IMG/VR virus record: IMGVR_UViG_2541047878_000002
Span: 1-42,778 of that record
DNA: 42,778 nucleotides
Direction: 5' to 3' (one strand)
Source of the DNA: a virus
Lineage: Duplodnaviria > Heunggongvirae > Uroviricota > Caudoviricetes
The position numbers and the translations under genes are program-made. Positions 3,147 through 42,778 of the stretch are shown in pieces; positions within the stretch are counted from its first letter, which is position 1, and every line of letters starts with the position of its first letter. A model generated the notes under the pieces. It worked only from the letters and a program-made list of their open reading frames with translations, was not told where the DNA came from and did no database searches.

Positions 3147-3470
3147 TTATTCATTGCCGATATTCACCTTTATCGCGAACACCTTTACCGGTTTATCGCC
3201 GAAGTGCGGATGTGTGATTGTCTTGATTTCATATCCGTCATACGGAACATCAATTCTACGGCTGGAATCGTCGCGCTTCGGATATCCCTTTGTGATAATC
3301 AGGCGATCATACTCCCGGAACATAATTCGCTTATTCCAGTAGTCATTACACAGGCGATACTCTTCCGTTTTCTCTCTGCGAATCATGGCATCGAAGTATT
3401 CACCTTTAACGGCAAGTTGTAGGTTAGCCAAGGTTAACCTCCTGCGGCGGTTCTGCTGCAAAATACGCAA
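3147..3470 (-). CDS. Hypothetical protein, possibly DUF3850/ASCH-like
   Basis: 107 aa; pattern LQLAVKGEYFDAMIRREKTEEYRLCNDYW resembles the recalled ASCH/DUF3850 signature (YF.A...G.KT.E.R.ND); family assignment from memory only. Confidence 0.45.
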   Translation of the reverse strand: MRILQQNRRRRLTLANLQLAVKGEYFDAMIRREKTEEYRLCNDYWNKRIMFREYDRLIITKGYPKRDDSSRRIDVPYDGYEIKTITHPHFGDKPVKVFAIKVNIGNE

Positions 3471-4185
3471 TACCTTTATCCCAGATGGATTTTATGGTCG
3501 TCCATGTGACTGGTACTTTAATTTCAATCCGCCCGCTACCGTCACAGGTATCGCAATCATCATCGCCAAAGCATTCCGGGCAGCTGATAAACGTAGTTTC
3601 TGAAAATTCACCGGATAGCGCACCCTTAGCGCCGTTCTCGGCTGTTAGTCTCTTCGGCACCATGACCCAACCATCCGGAGTTACCGGAGAGTTGCCATTT
3701 ACATCGAAGTTTGGCTCTGCGTCCTGAACCAGGAGGATGTAACCATTCTTGGCAGTATCAAGTTCTAACGCCTCGGTGACGGTGCCGAAATAGCGATTAC
3801 CTAAATCAGCATCACAAGTGCTTACATCAATGGAAACTTCCATGCCTTCGATTAATTCTGGCAAGTTGTAAGTTTGGCTTACAGGTTGGCTACCCTGAAG
3901 CATGGAGGCGCGGTGACACCAGATAATCCAGCCAAGCGCCATATCCCATGCCATGTATTCTCTATCGCCATTTTTTGCCCTACGGCGATCTACAGATTCC
4001 CCGAAACGCTTCTCCATAAATAATTCATAGGCTGCTCGTTCATCCGATACTGCTGCCAGTGATGCCAGTGCAATTCGTGCCAGTTCTTCCGCTTCTTCTG
4101 CTGGAAGTACAACGTTGCTACCCGGTCCGTATGTTTCGCGCCACTGCTTGATTGTCAGCAGTCGCTCTTTGGTAATAGTGGTCAT
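3424..4185 (-). CDS. Hypothetical early-left protein with C-terminal Cys cluster
   Basis: 253-aa ORF, C-terminal CPECFGDDDCDTCDGSG motif; no family recognised. Confidence 0.5.
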   Translation of the reverse strand: MTTITKERLLTIKQWRETYGPGSNVVLPAEEAEELARIALASLAAVSDERAAYELFMEKRFGESVDRRRAKNGDREYMAWDMALGWIIWCHRASMLQGSQPVSQTYNLPELIEGMEVSIDVSTCDADLGNRYFGTVTEALELDTAKNGYILLVQDAEPNFDVNGNSPVTPDGWVMVPKRLTAENGAKGALSGEFSETTFISCPECFGDDDCDTCDGSGRIEIKVPVTWTTIKSIWDKGIAYFAAEPPQEVNLG

Positions 4186-4195
4186 TTGTTATGCC

Positions 4196-4435
4196 TCAAT
4201 ACACGAAATCTGTTTTAAATTCATGGTTACATTCTGGACAGCATGTTTCGTAACCTTTTATTTCTTCACATGCCTGTTTAGCTCCAGAAAACTCCCAGAA
4301 ATCTGGATCACAAAGCAGATCGAAATTGTGACCACATTTGGGACATTCGGTATCAAGTGACAGACTCCAGTAGGCAGTGGTGTTTTTATCCATCTCACTC
4401 TCCTTTGATGCGAATACCAGCGGCGCGGGAATCAT
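4196..4435 (-). CDS. Small zinc-ribbon-like hypothetical protein
   Basis: 79 aa with CPKCGH…CCPECNHEF (two CxxC pairs). Confidence 0.45.
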   Translation of the reverse strand: MIPAPLVFASKESEMDKNTTAYWSLSLDTECPKCGHNFDLLCDPDFWEFSGAKQACEEIKGYETCCPECNHEFKTDFVY

Positions 4436-5168
4436 TCCATCGCTTTACTTCTTCACGAATTACGTCAATGCATTCTTTCGAATCCATTAGGTAATCTTCA
4501 TCAAAAAGCCTTTCCTGTTCGTTTTCTATCGCAACAATGATTGCTTCAACTAACTTTTGTGCCTGAGAACCACTTTCTAACTCTGCAATGCGCTTCTCTG
4601 CGGCTTCCAGCTTCTCGCGCATATCGTCAACGTACTCGACCAGAGATCCGCCAGCAGGAATTTCGCACTCCTCGACCAGTTGGAAGTAGATATCAGCTGC
4701 GGCCCGTGTGTTGCTATGCCTAGCGTCGCCCATCTCACCTTCACGAAGAGCATCGCGTTCGGCGGTAAGATTGGCTATTTTGCTGTCTTTGCCTTCCAGC
4801 TCAACACGCAGCTTCCCTACCGTTAGCGCAATATCCTCGTTCTCCTGGTCACGGCTTTTGATGTATTGCTGGTTTCTTTCCCGTTCATCCAGTAGTGCCA
4901 GCACGGTAGCCGGATTGGCTGCGGCGATGAATTCAGCATTGGCCTGCTGTTCTATTTGGAAATCTTCATCGAAACCGCTTTCTGGATGCGCTCCTTCAAT
5001 TCTGCAAATGGGAATATATCCAGCAGCCTCGCGGTGAATTAGTGCATCATCACCATCAAATCGGCTCTCCCCATATTCGAGCGACCACTCACCACACGTT
5101 GCTTTTTCTGCCTTGGCACGCAGCGCCTGATAGTCAATCTTGCTCACTGGCTGCCTCCTTTGCGCCAC
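4395..5168 (-). CDS. Ead/Ea22-like acidic coiled-coil protein
   Basis: 257-aa acidic ORF with coiled-coil segment, in the early-left region; an internal GTG at 5147 with an AGGAGG SD is a more likely start than the ORF-track start. Confidence 0.5.
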
Positions 5169-8164: not shown

Positions 8165-8635
8165 CTAATAAAATACCCAATTTTCTGTTTCTTGGTTGTG
8201 TCCAAAGTTATATTCAATATCTGGTGTTGATGTATCAATATTCTTCATCCCATCAACAAGAGTTGATACAACAGCCAAATCTTGTTTGATTCTCATCAAA
8301 TGGTATTTCTTTCGGCGCAATAAACTTTCAATGGCAAGTTTCTTCGTCGGGAATGCAAAAGATCTTTCTGCATTTTTTGCTACTTTCTTAATTGCATATC
8401 TATTTCTCCTTTGTTTCCATTCCTGTAACCACTGATTTGGTGCTGGTTTAAAATTAACAATCCAATGCGCAGGAACCAACCATGCATAATGCTCTGTCTG
8501 ATGAAAAGCTATATATTGAAGTGCGAATATTTTGATTCCATCTTCTTCAACTGTCGCTTGGAATCTCCAGAAAACAGGCATTCCATCATGTTCAGTTTCT
8601 GATTCAGGAAAAGGTACGCTCCATGATTTTGTCAT
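8165..8635 (-). CDS. Hypothetical AT-rich pL-operon accessory protein (156 aa)
   Basis: ORF with GAGGTGA SD; visibly lower GC than surrounding genes; sits between N and cIII where lambda carries ral/sieB/ea10. Confidence 0.55.
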   Translation of the reverse strand: MTKSWSVPFPESETEHDGMPVFWRFQATVEEDGIKIFALQYIAFHQTEHYAWLVPAHWIVNFKPAPNQWLQEWKQRRNRYAIKKVAKNAERSFAFPTKKLAIESLLRRKKYHLMRIKQDLAVVSTLVDGMKNIDTSTPDIEYNFGHNQETENWVFY

Positions 8636-17445: not shown

Positions 17446-17520
17446 GGGTCAGTCGTATAAAGGTCATTACGGAAGGCTGTTAACCTTCTTATCGTGGTTC
17501 GAGTCCACGCTGTCCCGCCA
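17446..17520 (+). tRNA. tRNA-like gene, anticodon GUU (Asn), CCA encoded
   Basis: hand-folded cloverleaf: acceptor GGGTCAG/CTGTCCC (one U-U mismatch), D-loop with GG, anticodon stem gaagg/ccttc with loop cuGUUaa, T-arm cgtgg-TTCGAGT-ccacg, discriminator G + CCA. Confidence 0.55.
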
Positions 17521-17525
17521 AACAT

Positions 17526-17601
17526 GCTGGTTTAGCTCCAATGGTAGAGCGGTCGCCTTGTAAGCGAATGGGTAGCGGTTCAAGTCCGTTAACCAGCACC
17601 A
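17526..17601 (+). tRNA. tRNA-like gene, anticodon UGU (Thr), CCA encoded
   Basis: hand-folded cloverleaf: acceptor GCTGGTT/AACCAGC (7/7), D-arm TAGCTCCAATGGTAGAGC, anticodon loop cuUGUaa, T-arm agcgg-TTCAAGT-ccgtt, discriminator A + CCA. Confidence 0.6.
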
Positions 17602-17718: not shown

Positions 17719-17934
17719 ATGAAATCCATGGATAAGATAACAACGGGTGTCGCCTATGGCACCTCGGCAGGCAGTGCCGGGTACTGGTTTTTACAGTGGC
17801 TTGATCAGGTCAGTCCATCACAGTGGGCTGCTATTGGTGTGCTGGGAAGTCTGGTTCTGGGCTTCCTGACTTATCTGACAAATCTGTACTTCAAAATCAG
17901 AGAAGACAAGCGTAAGGCTGCGAGAGGTGAATAA
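17719..17934 (+). CDS. S: Pinholin, phage 21 S21 type (dual-start MKSM motif)
   Basis: 71 aa [63 protein letters not shown]… matches recalled S21. Confidence 0.85.
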
Positions 17935-18431
17935 TGTCGCCATCATTACGCAAGGCTGTTGCAGCTGCTATTGGTGGTGGGGCTATTGCCATAGCGTCTA
18001 TGCTCATCACTGGCCCAAGTGGTAACGATGGTCTGGAAGGTGTCAGTTACATACCATACAAAGATATCGTTGGCGTATGGACTGTATGTCACGGACACAC
18101 CGGAAAAGACATTATGCTCGGTAAAACGTATACCGAAGCAGAATGCAAAGCCCTCCTGAATAAAGACCTTGCCACTGTCGCCAGACAAATTAACCCGTAC
18201 ATCAAAGTCGATATACCGGAAACAACGCGCGGCGCTCTTTACTCATTCGTTTACAACGTGGGTGCTGGCAATTTCAGAACATCGACGCTTCTGCGCAAAA
18301 TCAACCAGGGCGATATCAAAGGCGCATGTGATCAGCTACGTCGCTGGACATACGCTGGCGGTAAGCAATGGAAAGGTCTGATGACTCGTCGTGAGATTGA
18401 GCGTGAAATCTGTTTGTGGGGTCAGCAATGA
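17934..18431 (+). CDS. R: SAR endolysin (lysozyme with N-terminal signal-anchor-release domain), R21 type
   Basis: 165 aa; Gly/Ala-rich weakly hydrophobic N-terminus [20 protein letters not shown] followed by a lysozyme-like domain. Confidence 0.85.
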
Positions 18432-18519
18432 ACATGATTTGCTTTTTCATGGCAGCGTTGCTCGCATTGAATGGCAACGATGCGTGGCCGTGGTTTCTGG
18501 CCGTGGGGGTGTTGATGTC

Positions 18520-18987
18520 ATGAGTCGGTTAACCGCGATTATCTCCGCTCTGGTTATCTGCATCATCGTTTGCCTGTCATGGGCTGTTAATCATTACCGT
18601 GATAACGCCATTACCTACAAAGCCCAGCGCGATAAAAAAGTCAGTGAGCTGAAGCAGGCGACTGCCACCATTACTGACATGCAGCAGCGCCAGCGTTCTG
18701 CTGATGCACTCGATGCTAAATACACGAAGGAGTTAGCTGATGCGAAAGCTGAAAATGATGCTCTTCGGCGCAGGCTTGATAATGGTGGTCGGGTGTTCGT
18801 CAAAGGAAAATGCCCTGTGCCATCCTCAGCCGAAACCTCCAGCGCCTCCGGCATGGGCAATGATGCCACCGTCGAACTCTCTCCAGTTGCTGGACGAAAC
18901 GTTCTCGGTATCCGGGACGGAATTATCCGCGACCAAACAGCACTGAGAACGCTTCAGGAATACATCAGGACGCAATGCCTTCGATGA
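18520..18987 (+). CDS. Rz: Rz i-spanin
   Basis: N-terminal TM helix then coiled-coil periplasmic domain; start at ATG 18520 within ORF-track entry 18391..18987. Confidence 0.75.
18740..18946 (+). CDS. Rz1: Rz1 o-spanin lipoprotein nested in the +1 frame of Rz
   Basis: 68 aa with signal peptide and lipobox (LIMVVGCSS), Pro-rich mature part, entirely embedded within Rz. Confidence 0.75.
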
Positions 18988-19161
18988 TAGCGATAATTTT
19001 ACTCATCATCCTTCACATCTGGCTCTGTAGACAGGATGGTGATCACTTCTGGAGTGAATCCAGATTAAACATCTCATTGCTGATGCTTGATATTGAGCAT
19101 CTGGCGCGCGGTAAGGGGCTGCGTTGAGATAAGAGCCAGTCATTACAAATACCAGGATTTA

Positions 19162-19186
19162 GCCTCGCATTTGCGGGGTTTTTTAT
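19162..19186 (+). terminator. Intrinsic terminator after the lysis cassette
   Basis: cctcgc-attt-gcgggg hairpin followed by TTTTTTAT. Confidence 0.4.
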
Positions 19187-19208
19187 TCCCAACTCCATAG
19201 GTAATTTT

Positions 19209-19688
19209 ATGACCCAGCATATTGGCGTAAAACTGATTAACGCCTTTCCGATGACGAGACAGGCATATAACGATTTTCGTGGCTGGCAGCTTCCTGCCGG
19301 AGAAAACGGCGAGGATGAAGGCTATCTGGTTGAATATCTGGATGGCGGAAAACCTAACACCGATCGCTTTGATGGCTACGTTAGCTGGAGTCCAAAAGAA
19401 GTATTCGAAAAGGCTTATCGTCCTGTATCAGGGCTAAGTTTCGGTCTGGCCATGGAAGCGTTAAAACAGGGAAAGAGTTTGCAGCGGGCAGGATGGAATG
19501 GGAAAGACCAGTTTGTTTATCTCGTGAAAGGGGAAAAATTAGCGTCTGCGTTGGGTTATGGCTTTGGCGAATATGTTGGCGAGCCAACTTTCAATGACAC
19601 GCTTGTATTGAAAAACTCACAGAACCGCCTTGCTACATGGGGTCCATCCATTGGCGACCTGATGGCTGAAGACTGGCAAATCATTTAA
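19209..19688 (+). CDS. Hypothetical protein (159 aa); C-terminal half possibly DUF2829-like
   Basis: ORF between lysis and packaging modules; C-terminal segment …FGLAMEALKQGKSLQRAGWNGKDQFVYLV…LATWGPSIGDLMAEDWQII; family link is tentative recollection. Confidence 0.5.
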   Translation: MTQHIGVKLINAFPMTRQAYNDFRGWQLPAGENGEDEGYLVEYLDGGKPNTDRFDGYVSWSPKEVFEKAYRPVSGLSFGLAMEALKQGKSLQRAGWNGKDQFVYLVKGEKLASALGYGFGEYVGEPTFNDTLVLKNSQNRLATWGPSIGDLMAEDWQII

Positions 19689-19990
19689 CCGTGTAGGCAT
19701 TACAAAGCCTATCTACGGGTGGGCTTGATAATGAAACCGGAATTTATTCTTGGCAACCAGTTACGGCAGTACCACGAAGCAACCCAAGCCAGTAAGTGGG
19801 GAAATAACACTGGCAGCCACTGAAAGATGAACCTCCTGCCTTATGGCAAAAAAGATTCTTTGTGGTGGCGGACTGATGGAAAGACATCGGTTATTGCAGA
19901 GGCCATTCAATGAATGGTCTCGACAATGGCTTATACCATACACGGGATAACTTAACTGATATCCCTTTCAACGGATAAACGGAGCCAACA

Positions 19991-20233
19991 ATGGCAGAGA
20001 TTATTCCCATGACTGAAGAACAGAAATTCCAGTTAGAGATTTACAAACTGGTCATGAACCAGAACGCAGCTGCAGAGGAAGCATTTCAGTTCATTGGCAC
20101 TGACGAACTGAAGCTTGAGCTATTCAAAATTCACTTCCAGTCAGGCGGCGCTAATTCGGATATCACGACCCGCACTATCGAAGCGGTGCGTAAATCGAAG
20201 GAAGCGTTAGACCTGTTCACCACCGGAGCATGA
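19991..20233 (+). CDS. Hypothetical protein upstream of terminase
   Basis: 80-aa ORF with GGAG SD. Confidence 0.45.
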   Translation: MAEIIPMTEEQKFQLEIYKLVMNQNAAAEEAFQFIGTDELKLELFKIHFQSGGANSDITTRTIEAVRKSKEALDLFTTGA

Positions 20234-20262: not shown

Positions 20263-20757
20263 ATGAATATGGCAGCACCAAAGGGCAACCGATTTTGGGA
20301 GGCCCGCAGTAGTCATGGGCGAAATCCTAAATTCGAATCGCCTGAGGCGCTGTGGGCTGCTTGTTGTGAATACTTCGAGTGGGTGGAAGCTAACCCGCTA
20401 TGGGAGATGAAGGCGTTCTCGTATCAGGGTGAAGTGATACAAGAGCCTATCGCCAAGATGCGAGCGATGACCATTACCGGACTCACTCTGTTCATTGATG
20501 TGACGCTTGAAACATGGCGCACATATCGCCTGCGAGAAGATTTATCTGAAGTCGTTACGCGAGCAGAGCAGGTCATCTACGATCAGAAATTCTCTGGCGC
20601 AGCCGCTGACCTTCTCAACGCTAACATCATCGCCCGTGATTTGGGCCTCAAAGAGCAGTCGCAAGTTGAAGACGTGACACCTGATAAGGGAGATCGCGAT
20701 AAGCGGCGCTCTCGTATCAAGGAGCTATTCAACCGTGGAACTGGACGCGATTCTTGA
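20263..20757 (+). CDS. Terminase small subunit, P22 gp3 type
   Basis: matches recalled P22 gp3 ([47 protein letters not shown]…); likely true start is the ATG at 20269; contains the pac site. Confidence 0.85.
20536..20557 (+). other. Candidate P22-type pac site within the terS gene
   Basis: GAAGATTTATCTGAAGTCGTTA matches my recollection of the 22-bp P22 pac sequence. Confidence 0.5.
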
Positions 20758-22234
20758 TAACCTGAGCGACGAAGAGCAAATCGAATTGCTCGAGCTACTC
20801 GAAGAAGAAGAGAGCTACCGGAACACACACCTGCTATATGAATTTACGCCATACAGCAAACAGCGTGAGTTCATCGACGCCGGGCATGACTATCCAGAGC
20901 GCTGTTTTATGGCTGGTAACCAGCTTGGTAAGTCATTTACTGGTGCTGCTGAAGTCGCGTTTCACCTTACCGGGCGTTATCCGGGCACAAAAGGCTATCC
21001 TGCTGATGGTAAATATGGCGGGGAGTGGAAAGGTAAGCGTTTCTATGAGCCTGTTGTCTTCTGGATTGGCGGCGAGACAAACGAGACGGTAACCAAAACG
21101 ACTCAACGCATCCTGTGCGGTCGTATTGAAGAGAATGATGAACCGGGCTACGGTTCAATACCGAAAGAGGACATCATTAGCTGGAAGAAGTCTCCTTTCT
21201 TTCCGAACCTTGTTGATCATCTTCTGGTTAAGCATCACACGGTTGATGGCGTTGAAGATGGCATTTCAATCTGCTACTTCAAGCCATACTCGCAAGGCCG
21301 TGCTCGCTGGCAGGGTGACACAATCCACGGCGTGTGGTTTGACGAAGAGCCACCATACAGCATTTATGGCGAAGGTCTTACCCGTACCAACAAATACGGG
21401 CAATTCTCAATTCTGACGTTTACCCCGCTGATGGGGATGTCTGACGTTGTTACCAAGTTCCTGAAGAATCCCAGCAAGTCGCAGAAAGTGGTCAACATGA
21501 CCATCTATGACGCTGAGCACTACACCGACGAGCAGAAAGAGCAAATCATCGCATCCTATCCTGAGCATGAGAGAGAGGCGCGTGCTCGCGGTATTCCTAC
21601 GATGGGTAGCGGGCGAATCTTCCAGATACCGGAAGAGACGATTAAGTGTCAGCCGTTTGAGTGTCCTGATCACTTCTACGTAATTGGCGGGATGGATTTC
21701 GGATGGGATCACCCGCAGGCGCAGGTTCAGCTTTGGTGGGATAAGGACGCAGACACAATCTACGTTTCACGCGTGTGGAAGGCGAAAGAAAAAACAGCCG
21801 TTCAGGCGTGGGGAGCCGTTAAATCATGGGCGCATAAAGTGCCAACCGCATGGCCTCATGACGGAAACCAGCATGAGAAGGGCGGCGGTGAGCAGCTCAA
21901 AGGGCAGTATGCAGATGCTGGATTTATGATGTTGCAGGAGCATGCGACATGGCCTGATGGCGGTAATGCTGTTGAGCCTGGAATCACTGAATTGCGAGAC
22001 ATGATGCTCGACGGTCGCTTCAAAGTATTCAACACCTGTGAGCCATTCTTTGAGGAGTTCCGTCTCTATCACCGTGATGAAAACGGGAAAATCGTCAAGC
22101 TTAACGACGACGTGCTCTCCGCCGTTCGCTATGCATACATGATGCGCCGCTTCGCCAAAATGATGCGCGACATCAAAAAACCAAAAGAGAAAAAGATACC
22201 AGCCCCAATCAGGCCCATCGCACGGAGAACTTAA
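20735..22234 (+). CDS. Terminase large subunit, P22 gp2 type
   Basis: 499 aa, GTG start overlapping terS end; N-terminus [26 protein letters not shown]… as recalled for P22 gp2. Confidence 0.9.
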
Positions 22235-34579: not shown

Positions 34580-35218
34580 TTAATTGCGAATGGAATCGCG
34601 GAACTCTTTGCTTGATAGAAAAGGATCTGTTCTCCTTAACTCATCATAGTTTTTATTAAACTTTCTTGCTTCACCTGGGTATCTGTTGAACAAAACATTG
34701 CAGAAAAAAGAGAGCAATAACTCACATATGAATGCTAATACCCTGAAAAATAAAGGTATAAAAAGAAGGGAAGGTTCATTGAAGTCTCTATTCCAAACAA
34801 AATAGACAATCATCCCGACATACCAAATTGATATCCCTATACTGATGATTGTTCCAACAGAGGTAACTACGATCCCGATTAAGTCGGACAGTCTGTTTGC
34901 CAGTAACTCATTTGAGTATCTTGCAATCATATACCGCCAACATTTTGCAATATCATCATGATCTGTAGAGTCTTCTGGAATAGCTAGGCTTCTACATATT
35001 GAAGTAGCTCTTTTTTTCTCAACTCTTTTTGAGAGCCATCCATTAAAGAGATACATCAACACCTGCGTTGCTATTCCTGCACCAAGTGATATCAAAGACA
35101 TCCCCAAAAATCGCCATCCTGGAGATAGTGACTGGTACTGCCAAACAAAAAAAATTAAAAAACCCAATGAGCCTATGACATAGGCTGATGTATCGCTATA
35201 TATATCTATTTTTTTCAT
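34580..35218 (-). CDS. AT-rich integral membrane protein (about 4 TM helices) at the P22 sieA position; candidate superinfection-exclusion or abortive-infection effector
   Basis: 212 aa from ATG 35218 with AAGGAG SD 10 nt upstream (ORF-track start is a GTG at 35251); strongly hydrophobic segments; low GC; directly downstream of the Mnt-like RHH gene on the same strand. Confidence 0.55.
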   Translation of the reverse strand: MKKIDIYSDTSAYVIGSLGFLIFFVWQYQSLSPGWRFLGMSLISLGAGIATQVLMYLFNGWLSKRVEKKRATSICRSLAIPEDSTDHDDIAKCWRYMIARYSNELLANRLSDLIGIVVTSVGTIISIGISIWYVGMIVYFVWNRDFNEPSLLFIPLFFRVLAFICELLLSFFCNVLFNRYPGEARKFNKNYDELRRTDPFLSSKEFRDSIRN

Positions 35219-35268
35219 TGAGTAGCCACTCCTTAGTTTTGAGCAGAACACCGGATGATAATGTTTTG

Positions 35269-35640: not shown

Positions 35641-35817
35641 ATGATGAGCGATGTTCTTTACAGTGGTCGTAAAAGTCAGAGTTTCCAGCTTCGTTTGCCA
35701 GCGCGAATGAAGGAGGAGATCAGACGCGTAGCTGAAATGGATGGAATTTCTATCAACTCTGCGATTGTGCAGCGACTGGCTAAAAGCCTGAGAGAGGAAA
35801 GAGCTAATGCCCAGTAA
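35641..35817 (+). CDS. Arc-like ribbon-helix-helix repressor
   Basis: 58 aa from ATG 35641 (GGAG SD 6 nt upstream; ORF-track start 35626): …QSFQLRLPARMKEEIRRVAEMDGISINSAIVQRLAKSL…, RHH fold as in P22 Arc. Confidence 0.6.
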   Translation: MMSDVLYSGRKSQSFQLRLPARMKEEIRRVAEMDGISINSAIVQRLAKSLREERANAQ

Positions 35818-35890
35818 AAATAGTGAAGCCCGGAAGTGCGCGAACACAAACCGGGCCTCTATGTCAGTAACCGTACTCAAGGAAACTAAC

Positions 35891-36529
35891 ATGAATATTG
35901 TAGCAAAATCAGATTATAACTTCCAAGGATTCACTTTTAACCCTGTAACAGAGGGCGGGTCTATCTGGTTTACCTCCACCGAACTAGCTAAGGCTCTCGG
36001 CTATAAAAAAACTGATGCCATCAGCCAAATTTATGCCCGTAATGCTGACGAATTTTCCGACTCAATGTCATTGACCCTCAATATGAAGGTCAACGGAATA
36101 AACAATAGCTTACGTAACAAATCGGTCAGAGTTTACTCACTCCGAGGCGCTCACTTGGTGGCGATGTTTGCTTCTACGCCCAAGGCCAAAGAGTTCCGCC
36201 GCTGGGTGCTGGATATTTTGGATCGGCAGGCAGAATGCTCACCGATTGCAAAACAGTTTACTGACGAAGAACTGGTTAATCTCTGCTACTTACAATTGTG
36301 GATGGAGAAGAGTCAACAAATGTGCAAACACATCTACCCAGGAATGAAGCAAATTGGTTCTGAGCTTTCTGGAAGGATTTACGATATTGCATATGAGACT
36401 CGCTACATGTCAGAAGAAACCAAGAAATCACTTCTTCGTGAAGTGAAGAATCTTGATACCAACAATTTTGTCGTAAAGAACGCTCAGCCAATGCTGGCAA
36501 AACTGCGCGGCGAGGAATGGATTCATTGA
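35891..36529 (+). CDS. Bro-N domain antirepressor-like protein
   Basis: 212 aa from ATG 35891 (AAGGA SD); N-terminal Bro-N-like segment …IWFTSTELAKALGY…VRVYSLRGAHLVAMFASTPKAKEFRRWVLDIL…; downstream of arc as ant is in P22. Confidence 0.6.
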   Translation: MNIVAKSDYNFQGFTFNPVTEGGSIWFTSTELAKALGYKKTDAISQIYARNADEFSDSMSLTLNMKVNGINNSLRNKSVRVYSLRGAHLVAMFASTPKAKEFRRWVLDILDRQAECSPIAKQFTDEELVNLCYLQLWMEKSQQMCKHIYPGMKQIGSELSGRIYDIAYETRYMSEETKKSLLREVKNLDTNNFVVKNAQPMLAKLRGEEWIH

Positions 36530-36617
36530 TTGGTGCGCCGGACGGCGCAAAAAGAAAACCGCCAGTGTGCTGCTGGCGGCCTATGTCACACCCTTACTAC
36601 CACATAAGGAATGCCTA

Positions 36618-37346
36618 ATGACTTTTAAGAATGTAGCAAACATCGGATCCGTTGTCACGGATAAAACCATTGACAGCCAGCGCCTGCTTGAGATGGTCAA
36701 TCATGCTCGTAGACAGTGCGGGGAAAAAGAAGTCCGCAATAACGACTTTATTGCACGCATTAAGGATGAACTTGAAGGTGAGCACTACGAAATTTTCGTA
36801 GTTCAAAAATCAAACAAGACAAGTTCTGAAAAAGTTGTTATGTCAATTAAGCAAGCCCTTCGAGTGGCTGCTCGTGAATCTAAAGCTGTTCGCCGCTCAC
36901 TGGTAGACCAACTTGAAAGTATGCAAGAAGCGCACATTAAAAGCGGTAAATCAGCGAGTGGACTTGTTGAGTATCGTCAAGCGCGAACATTGAAAATGAC
37001 GGTTGAAGCTGTTACCAATCTGTTCGATCTGATGCCAAATCTTGCGCCTGAGGCAAAGCAGACAGCGGCAGCAAGTATAATCAACCCGCTCGTTGGTTTT
37101 AATGCAATACCTCTTCCGGCAATAGAAGAGCATTACTACTCAGCAGGGGAGGTTGCAGAGCAGCTTGGAGTAACGGCCAACAAGATTGGTCGCATTGCTA
37201 ACGCAAACAACCTCAAAACTGAGCAGTACGGGAAGTTCTTCCTGGATAAATCGGCGCATTCCAGCAAACAGGTAGAGGCGTTTCGTTACAATTCTGAAGG
37301 CGTTAAAGCACTACAACACCTGCTACATGGCTCAAATGTGGCGTAA
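36618..37346 (+). CDS. Hypothetical protein, possibly a second antirepressor-type protein
   Basis: 242 aa from ATG 36618 with AAGGA SD; co-transcribed with arc-like and Bro-N genes; no confident family call. Confidence 0.45.
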   Translation: MTFKNVANIGSVVTDKTIDSQRLLEMVNHARRQCGEKEVRNNDFIARIKDELEGEHYEIFVVQKSNKTSSEKVVMSIKQALRVAARESKAVRRSLVDQLESMQEAHIKSGKSASGLVEYRQARTLKMTVEAVTNLFDLMPNLAPEAKQTAAASIINPLVGFNAIPLPAIEEHYYSAGEVAEQLGVTANKIGRIANANNLKTEQYGKFFLDKSAHSSKQVEAFRYNSEGVKALQHLLHGSNVA

Positions 37347-41062: not shown

Positions 41063-41539
41063 TTAACTAAACATCGCAGTAATCGAGGCACTCGCCAGAG
41101 AGTGAAAATGAACGTTAAACCCGACCATCGCGCCGCTGGCACCTTCATCGACATCAATACGTTCTACATCCAGCGCGTGAACGGTAAAAATGTAGCGATG
41201 GGTTTCGCCTTTCGGCGGCGCTGCGCCATCGTACCCGGTTTTACCAAAGTCGGTACGCGTCTGCAAAACGCCGTCTGGCATAGCTACCAGACCAGAGCCA
41301 AACCCTTGCGGTAATACGCGGGTATCAGCGGGTAAATTAACAACTACCCAGTGCCACCAGCCGGAGCCGGTTGGCGCATCCGGGTCATAGCAGGTGACAA
41401 CAAAACTTTTCGTTCCCACAGGAACATCATCCCACGCCAGATGCGGTGAAATATTATCGCCATCGTAACCCATGCCGTTAAAGACATGACGATGCGGCAG
41501 CTTATCGCCATCGCGCAGATCGTTACTGATGAGTTTCAT
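41063..41539 (-). CDS. ybhB: YbhB, PEBP/RKIP-family protein (host gene flanking attB)
   Basis: 158 aa MKLISNDLRDGDKLPHRHVF… PEBP-like; right of attR as in E. coli. Confidence 0.85.
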   Translation of the reverse strand: MKLISNDLRDGDKLPHRHVFNGMGYDGDNISPHLAWDDVPVGTKSFVVTCYDPDAPTGSGWWHWVVVNLPADTRVLPQGFGSGLVAMPDGVLQTRTDFGKTGYDGAAPPKGETHRYIFTVHALDVERIDVDEGASGAMVGFNVHFHSLASASITAMFS

Positions 41540-41647
41540 TAGAATGCCTCCGGGAAACCTCGGCCTTCAGACCGGGGAGGAAAGGAGGCGGTTTTCCGAC
41601 TAACTGTACTTTGCATAATCACATTTTCCTCTTTAGTATGTGAACAC

Positions 41648-42778
41648 ATGAAACGCGCATATAAATACCGGTTTTACCCGACAACTGAGCAGGCTGAGCT
41701 TTTAGCTCAGACGTTTGGCTGTGTGCGCTTCGTCTACAATTCCATCCTTCGTTGGCGTACCGATGCGTACTACGAGCGAAAAGAAAAGATCGGTTATCTA
41801 CAGGCCAACGCTCGCCTTACGGCGCTCAAAAAAGAGCCTGAATACATATGGCTGAATGATGTTTCCTGCGTTCCCCTCCAGCAGTCGTTGCGCCACCAAC
41901 AAGCCGCCTTTGCTAACTTCTTTGCCGGACGAGCTGCATATCCGGCTTTCAAAAGCAAACGGCACAAACAGGTGGCTGAGTTCACTGCCAGCGCGTTTAA
42001 ACACCGTGACGGCGAGTTGTATATAGCAAAGAGCAAGTCGCCGCTGGATGTTCGCTGGAGTCGAGAATTACCATCTGCGCCGTCAACCGTTACCATTTCC
42101 AGAGATAGCGCTGGCAGGTACTTTGTTTCCTGCCTGTGTGAGTTTGAACCTGTATCAATGCCTGTTACCGCTAAAACGGTCGGCATTGATGTGGGCTTAA
42201 AAGATTTATTCGTCACCGATACCGGATTCAAAACCGACAATCCCCGCCACACCGCTAAATATGCGAAGCGATTAACGCTGCTACAGCGACGTTTAAGCAG
42301 GAAGCAAAAAGGCTCAAGAAACCGTATTAAAGCCCGCTTAAAGGTCGCCCGACTCCACGCGAAAATCGCCGATTGCCGGATGGACAATCTGCACAAGTTG
42401 TCCCGCAAACTGATTAACGAAAACCAAGTTGTTTGCGTCGAATCCCTCAAGGTGAAAAACATGATCCGCAACCCGAAGCTGTCTAAAGCAATAGCTGACG
42501 CAGGCTGGAGCGAACTTGTTCGCCAGCTCCAGTACAAAGGCAAATGGGCCGGGCGGTCAGTGGTCGCCATTGACCAGTATTTACCGTCCTCAAAATGCTG
42601 TAGTTGCTGCGGTTTCACCATGCAAAAAATGCCTCTTAATGTTCGTAAATGGCACTGCCCTGAATGCGGCGCAGACCATGATCGCGACATTAACGCGGCA
42701 CGTAATATTAAAGCTGCCGGGCTGGCAGTGTTAGCCCACGGAGAGCCTGTAAACCCTGAATCGCAGCACGCGGCTTAG
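41648..42778 (+). CDS. tnpB: TnpB (IS200/IS605-family OrfB, RNA-guided endonuclease family), intact
   Basis: 376 aa with RuvC-I GIDVGL, RuvC-II VCVESLKVKNM, RuvC-III HDRDINAARNI and zinc finger CCSCCG…CPECG; stop codon is the last triplet of the window. Confidence 0.85.
   Translation: MKRAYKYRFYPTTEQAELLAQTFGCVRFVYNSILRWRTDAYYERKEKIGYLQANARLTALKKEPEYIWLNDVSCVPLQQSLRHQQAAFANFFAGRAAYPAFKSKRHKQVAEFTASAFKHRDGELYIAKSKSPLDVRWSRELPSAPSTVTISRDSAGRYFVSCLCEFEPVSMPVTAKTVGIDVGLKDLFVTDTGFKTDNPRHTAKYAKRLTLLQRRLSRKQKGSRNRIKARLKVARLHAKIADCRMDNLHKLSRKLINENQVVCVESLKVKNMIRNPKLSKAIADAGWSELVRQLQYKGKWAGRSVVAIDQYLPSSKCCSCCGFTMQKMPLNVRKWHCPECGADHDRDINAARNIKAAGLAVLAHGEPVNPESQHAA

Follow-up and report, generated by a model that had tools for sequence, protein, structure and literature searches.

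The stretch of DNA analyzed here, referred to as the window in its full length of 42,778 nucleotides, comprises a complete P22-like (Lederbergvirus) prophage with host genes on both sides. The flanks (1-2489 and 41063-42778) contain a pectinesterase gene resembling ybhC on one side and a PEBP gene resembling ybhB on the other, a position that corresponds to the classical lambda attachment site, and the prophage integrase is of the lambda type (Arm-DNA-bind plus Phage_integrase). An ORF of the IS605-family OrfB/TnpB type is located at 41648-42778, beyond the right flank. In addition we found an Ead/Ea22-like ORF at 4395-5168 (- strand) and a Bro-N/P22 antirepressor-C ORF at 35807-36529 (+ strand). 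The accessory ORFs at 3424-4185, 8165-8635, 34580-35251 and 36567-37346 gave no match in Pfam or PADLOC, and among the 10 accessory ORFs analyzed with PADLOC no defence genes were detected.

The ORF under study is located at 19209-19688 on the + strand and runs from ATG to stop, encoding 159 amino acids plus the stop codon in the ORF listing. An ORF of this length following Rz/Rz1 had been described in an earlier note on the same DNA, and both motifs quoted there, ALKQGKSLQRAGWNGKD and GDLMAEDWQII, are found in the translation. Upstream lie the genes for holin (17719-17934), endolysin (17934-18431) and Rz/Rz1 (18391-18987 and 18740-18946). The prophage carries tRNA-Asn(GTT) and tRNA-Thr(TGT) (17446-17601) in the interval separating the Q-like antiterminator from the holin gene, as do Sf6, Kapi1 and phage 21. 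The downstream boundary of the slot is formed by an hkbM-like DUF2560 gene (19991-20233, + strand; Pfam PF10834, 147.7 bits), which occupies the same position in HK620, Sf6, Kapi1 and Huey and is followed by the small (20263-20757) and the large terminase gene (20735-22234).

A terminator-like hairpin with a T-run was identified by consensus scan at 19161-19190 (+ strand), 19 nt 5' of the ATG. The hairpin is kept in Kapi1 and Huey, with a substitution in the loop only. The gene had previously been credited with a terminator of its own; the hairpin and T-run are indeed present upstream, but they are better read as the terminator of the lysis unit. A sigma-70 scan of the + strand between 18700 and 20400 did not detect a promoter, and inspection by eye gave only weak candidates that overlap with the terminator. 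A further ORF of 50 aa (18975-19127) is situated between Rz/Rz1 and the terminator, where Kapi1 has Kapi1_042 and Sf6 has gene 65, the latter also 50 aa in length.

The start codon at 19209 is supported by an AGGT Shine-Dalgarno-like motif read from the sequence at 19199-19202 (+ strand, 7 nt 5' of the ATG) together with homologs that begin at the same methionine. The gene is real, as a total of 2,927 homologs were found at E<=1e-3; nearly all of the best 120 are 154-173 aa long and share the same architecture. PHROG 872 was matched over the full length of the protein (E 6e-68), and the AlphaFold model has a mean pLDDT of 90.1, whereas PADLOC and NCBIfam returned nothing useful for this ORF. 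In RefSeq the gene is named "DUF2829 domain-containing protein", so a Tad2 identity is not in itself a novelty in kind. Compared with its commonest 99%-identical variant (P0001, 204 member sequences) the protein has Q3 for K (codon 19215-19217) and G145 for V (codon 19641-19643). Position 145 directly follows the pocket residue W144 and is variable across the family. The DNA of the N-terminal half was detected in 45 and the present Tad2 allele in 37 of 5,426 complete E. coli genomes, and the unannotated phage HZ41 carries this allele as well.

Between the ORF and the DUF2560 gene lies a conserved non-coding scaffold of 302 bp (19689-19990, + strand; blastn). Positions 1-200 of this gap align with the Huey sequence that ends just ahead of the Acb4 gene, and positions 202-302 with the sequence that resumes right behind this gene; the same pattern was seen with Sf6. 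As the gap matches both sides of the Huey and Sf6 Acb4 gene, we read it as an empty Acb4 berth at ~19889/19890; a remnant of Acb4 was not found when 19689-19990 was searched by tblastn. A terminator-like hairpin on the minus strand is located at 19853-19832. The order of genes in Sf6 is Rz/Rz1, gene 65, gene 66 (the namesake of the Acb4 family), DUF2560 and terminase. Huey carries both the two-domain Tad2 gene and Acb4 in the slot, and HK620 carries KilA-N plus hkbL. The proposal that this is a moron-prone position thus holds up: Sf6 and Huey have the Acb4 sponge in the same slot, and HK620 has KilA-N genes there. The slot is a two-berth accessory island for signalling inhibitors in P22-like phages, and as such a place where new inhibitors may be sought in phages that have been studied very thoroughly.

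We next consider the protein itself. Its C-terminal half had been suggested to resemble DUF2829, and residues 77-159 match the Pfam family PF11195 "Tad2-like" (formerly DUF2829) with 75.9 bits (E 3.7e-21; the cutoff is 25 bits), covering profile positions 2-73 of 73. Far from lacking a DUF2829/Tad2 profile match, the segment in addition aligns with Tad2 of phage SPO1 (8sme, 8wje) in a phmmer search of PDB sequences with E 3e-25, end to end and without gaps over 85 aa, at 47% identity across these residues. The same search found ModTad2 (9eib, E 3e-18) and another Tad2 (8v3e, ~3e-18), while the HgmTad2/AcrIIA7 entries match weakly and partially, over aa 76-111 only. We assign the Tad2-like domain to aa 75-159 (19431-19685, + strand).

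The ligand contacts of SPO1 Tad2 are given by Yirmiya et al. (10.1101/2023.05.01.538930). The SPO1 contacts W25, N26, W73, S76 and D79 correspond to W96, N97, W144, S147 and D150 of the predicted pocket and are all identical; these five core residues are conserved in 47-48 of 48 two-domain homologs, and the residues that contact phosphate and ribose in SPO1 Tad2 are likewise all retained. Five peripheral positions differ: I63L, T65N, D67Q, H71A and T78G, corresponding to L134, N136, Q138, A142 and G149. In SPO1 Tad2 they are adenine-side or water-coordinating, and with the loss of T78 the sole direct hydrogen bond to adenine is gone. Since these positions vary in the family, the changes concern ligand specificity more than membership of Tad2. 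The protein belongs to a minority N/Q/G sub-clade comprising 11-14 of the 48 sequences. In keeping with the gapless alignment, the beta2-beta3 insertion is as short as that of SPO1 Tad2, and the 35-41-residue beta2-beta5 insertion of the HgmTad2-type dual sponge is absent from the alignment to SPO1 Tad2. The cyclic-dinucleotide pocket of HgmTad2 needs this insertion and is therefore not expected here.

The N-terminal half was passed over in the earlier note: the assignment of the C-terminal half is borne out, but residues 1-74 (19209-19430, + strand) form a separate conserved module, a small beta-rich autonomous domain that belongs to no Pfam family and will be called the N-module. Neither Pfam nor NCBIfam gave a match to these residues. 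Strands were located at 2-5, 9-14, 38-43 and 57-62 and helices at 17-24 and 63-69, and modelled alone the N-module reaches a pLDDT of 94.7. It is more conserved than the Tad2 half, with K8, R17, Y20, N21, R24, W26, P29, E32, D36, G38, LVEY40-43, DGG45-47, N50, GY56-57, SWSP59-62 and Y70 invariant or nearly so.

An index-free profile search yielded 2,580 cluster representatives of the N-module at E<=1e-3 and 1,283 at E<=1e-10, in which the module is located N-terminally, internally or C-terminally. By tblastn it was found in 137 phage genomes, including the gp49 gene of N4. Among the best 144 of the 2,580 representatives the Pfam partners were Tad2-like (45), Sequestin PF21825 (42), Acb4 PF13876 (14) and the Acb2/Tad1 hairpin (2); RyR Tad is a further partner. 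PF21825 and PF13876 correspond to the Sequestin and Acb4 sponges (PMC12265669). Triple fusions occur as N-module - Acb4 - Sequestin, N-module - Sequestin - Tad2, Acb4 - N-module - Sequestin and N-module - Sequestin - Acb4, and the N-module can take the first, the middle or the last place in such fusions. A two-domain protein of the reverse order, Tad2 - N-module, is also present. Genuine standalone proteins of 73-78 aa exist as well, for example in phiEaP8, where no sponge gene adjoins.

Some individual proteins in this set deserve mention. P0331, P0330, P0313, P0338, P0344 and P0315 (261-311 aa) are "beads-on-a-string" proteins in which the N-module is combined with two validated sponge domains in several orders. 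In P0316, a metagenomic protein of 354 aa, HNH_3 and AP2 domains lie between the N-module and a split Tad2 domain, which suggests that an N-module-Tad2 gene acquired a homing endonuclease by insertion or fusion. In phage IME10 (NC_019501 / JF974339) an N-module with 98.7% identity is encoded at 17758-17982, where no gene is annotated.

A relationship of the N-module to a protein of known structure was found with RyR Tad (Pectobacterium phage CB1 gp68), which is described in a 2026 preprint on Pseudomonas N4-like phages (10.64898/2026.06.04.730250). The N-module profile matches residues 5-69 of RyR Tad by hmmsearch (29.4 bits, E 2.8e-11), and a Foldseek search against BFVD matched the N-module to an RyR-domain protein of Yersinia phage TG1 (E 2e-4, TMq 0.75). 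From these two matches we conclude that the N-module and the N-domain of RyR Tad are homologous. In the crystal this N-domain forms a strand-swapped dimer by exchange of beta1, and the isolated N-fragment had no apparent activity against type I Thoeris (10.64898/2026.06.04.730250). In sequence and structure the N-module resembles none of the known sponges Lockin, Sequestin, Acb4, Acb2/Tad1 and TadIV-1, nor is it a second Tad2 repeat. Lockin and TadIV-1 were considered as identities and ruled out by their published descriptions and the absence of a PDB sequence match.

Judged from its sequence, the gene very probably encodes a Tad2-type sponge for bacterial immune alarm molecules, and we consider it likely that the whole is a two-domain phage counter-defence protein in which a Tad2-family sponge is joined to an independent N-module. 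By analogy with SPO1 Tad2, residues 75-159 would assemble as a homotetramer with the five core residues lining pockets between the protomers. The pockets would serve to capture and hold an ADP-ribose-derived TIR immune signal, presumably 3'cADPR (1''-3' gcADPR) of type I Thoeris as the likeliest ligand, and the Thoeris effector would then never be switched on. The N-module probably dimerises too and may add a second function.

Sequestration of such a signal is the likeliest activity given the Tad2 identity, the conservation of the pocket and the short insertion. Tad2 homologs of many phyla inhibit Thoeris through sequestration, and most of those tested inhibit type I Thoeris. The Acb4 sponge in the same slot of Sf6 and Huey likewise counts for this reading, as do the related Kapi1_043, proposed to be Tad2-like, and the homology of the N-module with RyR Tad. 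On the other side, the N-module joins alpha1 of Tad2 via only ~5 residues and alpha1 is the tetramer interface, which counts against the tetramer, and the five peripheral differences from SPO1 Tad2 count against the reading as a whole, as does the failure to find a sigma-70-like promoter on the + strand. Overall charge proved uninformative as an argument against a sponge: the N-module has a pI of ~5.2, but SPO1 Tad2 is acidic too. Experiments on any N-module-Tad2 protein were not found in the article texts searched. As a Tad2 homolog, the protein is an ordinary prophage-borne candidate TIR/Thoeris inhibitor that is rare in E. coli (37-45 of the 5,426 complete genomes).

What the N-module contributes can be read in two ways. 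It may be an anti-defence effector in its own right, representing a new family of sponges or inhibitors, so that the protein would be a two-headed inhibitor of two pathways; we put this forward tentatively, at somewhat below an even chance. It fits with the range of sponges to which the module is fused (Tad2, Sequestin, Acb4 and the Acb2/Tad1 hairpin among the best 144 of 2,580 representatives, as well as RyR Tad), with its free placement in triple fusions, with standalone genes such as that of phiEaP8, and with the long loops 24-37 and 44-56 being near-invariant. The same logic of fusion to known sponges led to Sequestin, which was found via its fusion to Tad2 and Acb4 with a Pfam-only query (PMC12265669); the N-module has no Pfam model and was therefore invisible to such Pfam-based fusion screens. 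The N-module could alternatively be a dimerisation scaffold, which is consistent with the result for RyR Tad, but standalone genes like the one in phiEaP8 are hard to reconcile with it.

If the module is an effector, it may constitute a new and widespread counter-defence family, acting as a sponge for an unassigned immune signal or as a protein-binding inhibitor, which we hold possible with the same reservation. The present protein and N4 gp49 would then be two-headed inhibitors, and the failure of the RyR Tad N-fragment would reflect the wrong system or a degenerate copy without the RGW and DGGKPN loops. The N-module shows the fusion behavior that led to Sequestin, and the model phage N4 carries it; should it be active itself, a large family would be added to the phage counter-defence repertoire.

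For the Tad2 domain the exact ligand is uncertain, as Tad2 homologs have diversified: the family switches between ligands including His-ADPR, N7-cADPR, cUMP/cCMP and cyclic dinucleotides, and its members include inhibitors of Thoeris types I, II and IV as well as of CBASS and Pycsar. The domain might thus be a sponge whose main ligand is not 3'cADPR, with His-ADPR from type II Thoeris, N7-cADPR from type IV Thoeris or the cyclic mononucleotides of Pycsar as candidates. The remodelled adenine side, where N136, Q138, A142 and G149 replace T65, D67, H71 and T78 of SPO1, and the place of the protein in the minority sub-clade speak for such a shift, as does the "ATW" context in common with the His-ADPR binder ModTad2, which is also without T78. 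We nevertheless regard it as rather unlikely, because the nearest solved relative by sequence, SPO1 Tad2, is a 3'cADPR binder, type I Thoeris is what most of the tested homologs inhibit, and the phosphate- and ribose-contacting residues are all kept.

A relative, Kapi1_043, lies in the same slot of phage Kapi1. The two genes share the start codon, an upstream region that is ~97% identical and aa 1-81 at 100% identity. Between the blastn breakpoints 19476 and 19665, however, a cassette comprising the Tad2 core (19477-19664, + strand; aa ~90-152) has no detectable similarity at the DNA level, while its flanks are ~97% identical. Kapi1_043 carries another Tad2 allele with an insertion of its own that is 14 aa longer and with T/D/T at the peripheral pocket positions; overall it is only 65% identical and thus a different protein. 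The identity of aa 1-81, the divergent core and the DNA breakpoints indicate that the ligand-binding core was exchanged as a cassette behind a constant N-half. A Tad2 core swapped behind a constant N-module is a compact example of arms-race diversification within one gene.

A 2026 transcriptome paper on E. coli MP1 proposed Kapi1_043 to be Tad2-like and found that no other prophage gene is expressed as highly in lysogens of this host, which is without Thoeris (PMC12922286). The Tad2-like idea is thus already published for this mosaic relative, and the N-module result is the added part. Strong lysogenic expression in the Thoeris-less MP1 is unusual for a pure anti-Thoeris factor. It lends some weight to a role in lysogenic conversion, in which the lysogen-expressed protein would change the physiology of the host by sequestering one of its nucleotide second messengers and would play no part against phage defence, and c-di-GMP is known to co-purify with HgmTad2. 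We consider this improbable, because the present allele has the short SPO1-type insertion and not the one required for the cyclic-dinucleotide pocket, SPO1 Tad2 does not bind cyclic dinucleotides, and the family consists mostly of genes of lytic and temperate phages situated in anti-signalling hotspots. The least probable reading is an AcrIIA7-type anti-CRISPR, which is already largely refuted; type II-A CRISPR-Cas9 is not normally known from E. coli. AcrIIA7 belongs to DUF2829 and its PDB entries are among the weak partial matches, but attempts by Li et al. to repeat the inhibition of Cas9 failed both in vitro and in vivo, for HgmTad2/AcrIIA7 as well as for other Tad2 homologs, Yirmiya et al. 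reinterpreted DUF2829 as anti-Thoeris, and the label "anti-CRISPR protein" on the Huey homolog reflects the old AcrIIA7 annotation.

Returning to the Tad2-type sponge with an N-module as the preferred reading, we compared the protein with known systems. SPO1 Tad2 (Gp34.65; PDB 8SME/8SMF/8WJE) has in common with it the Pfam domain, the short beta2-beta3 insertion and the core W, N, W, S and D. It differs in being a single-domain protein of 89 aa from a Bacillus myovirus, to which the present protein adds a 74-aa N-module, and in the five adenine-side or water-coordinating positions. HgmTad2/AcrIIA7 (8KBI) has the long insertion that forms the cyclic-dinucleotide pocket and is absent here, and ModTad2 (9EIB) binds His-ADPR and cUMP.

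The same architecture is found in gp49 of Escherichia phage N4 (ABK54417, 160 aa), which matches the N-module with 99 bits and Tad2-like with 84 bits. Its N-module is ~54% identical and its Tad2 half is another allele. The gp49 gene immediately follows an Acb4 gene in the N4-like anti-signalling hotspot, adjacent to the gene for the virion RNA polymerase, and a published functional test of gp49 was not found in the literature. In the N4 record (locus L005, EF056009 33632-34485) the Acb4-family protein is annotated as gp48; gp49 comes immediately after it, and the virion RNA polymerase gene is next. The Pfam name of PF13876 refers to "N4 Gp49", at odds with the gene numbering in EF056009.

RyR Tad is likewise a two-domain anti-Thoeris sponge, and its N-domain is a diverged N-module. 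In contrast to the present protein, the sponge at its C-terminus is helical and resembles RyR Repeat12 instead of Tad2, its N-domain is without the conserved RGW and DGGKPN loops, and it is a dimer as opposed to the presumed tetramer. Sf6 gene 66 and Huey CDS0066 (Acb4, PF13876) are similar in that they, too, encode sponges and lie in the same island of P22-like phages between the lysis and terminase genes. They differ in belonging to an unrelated fold and family (anti-CBASS) and in occupying the second berth, which is empty in the prophage described here.
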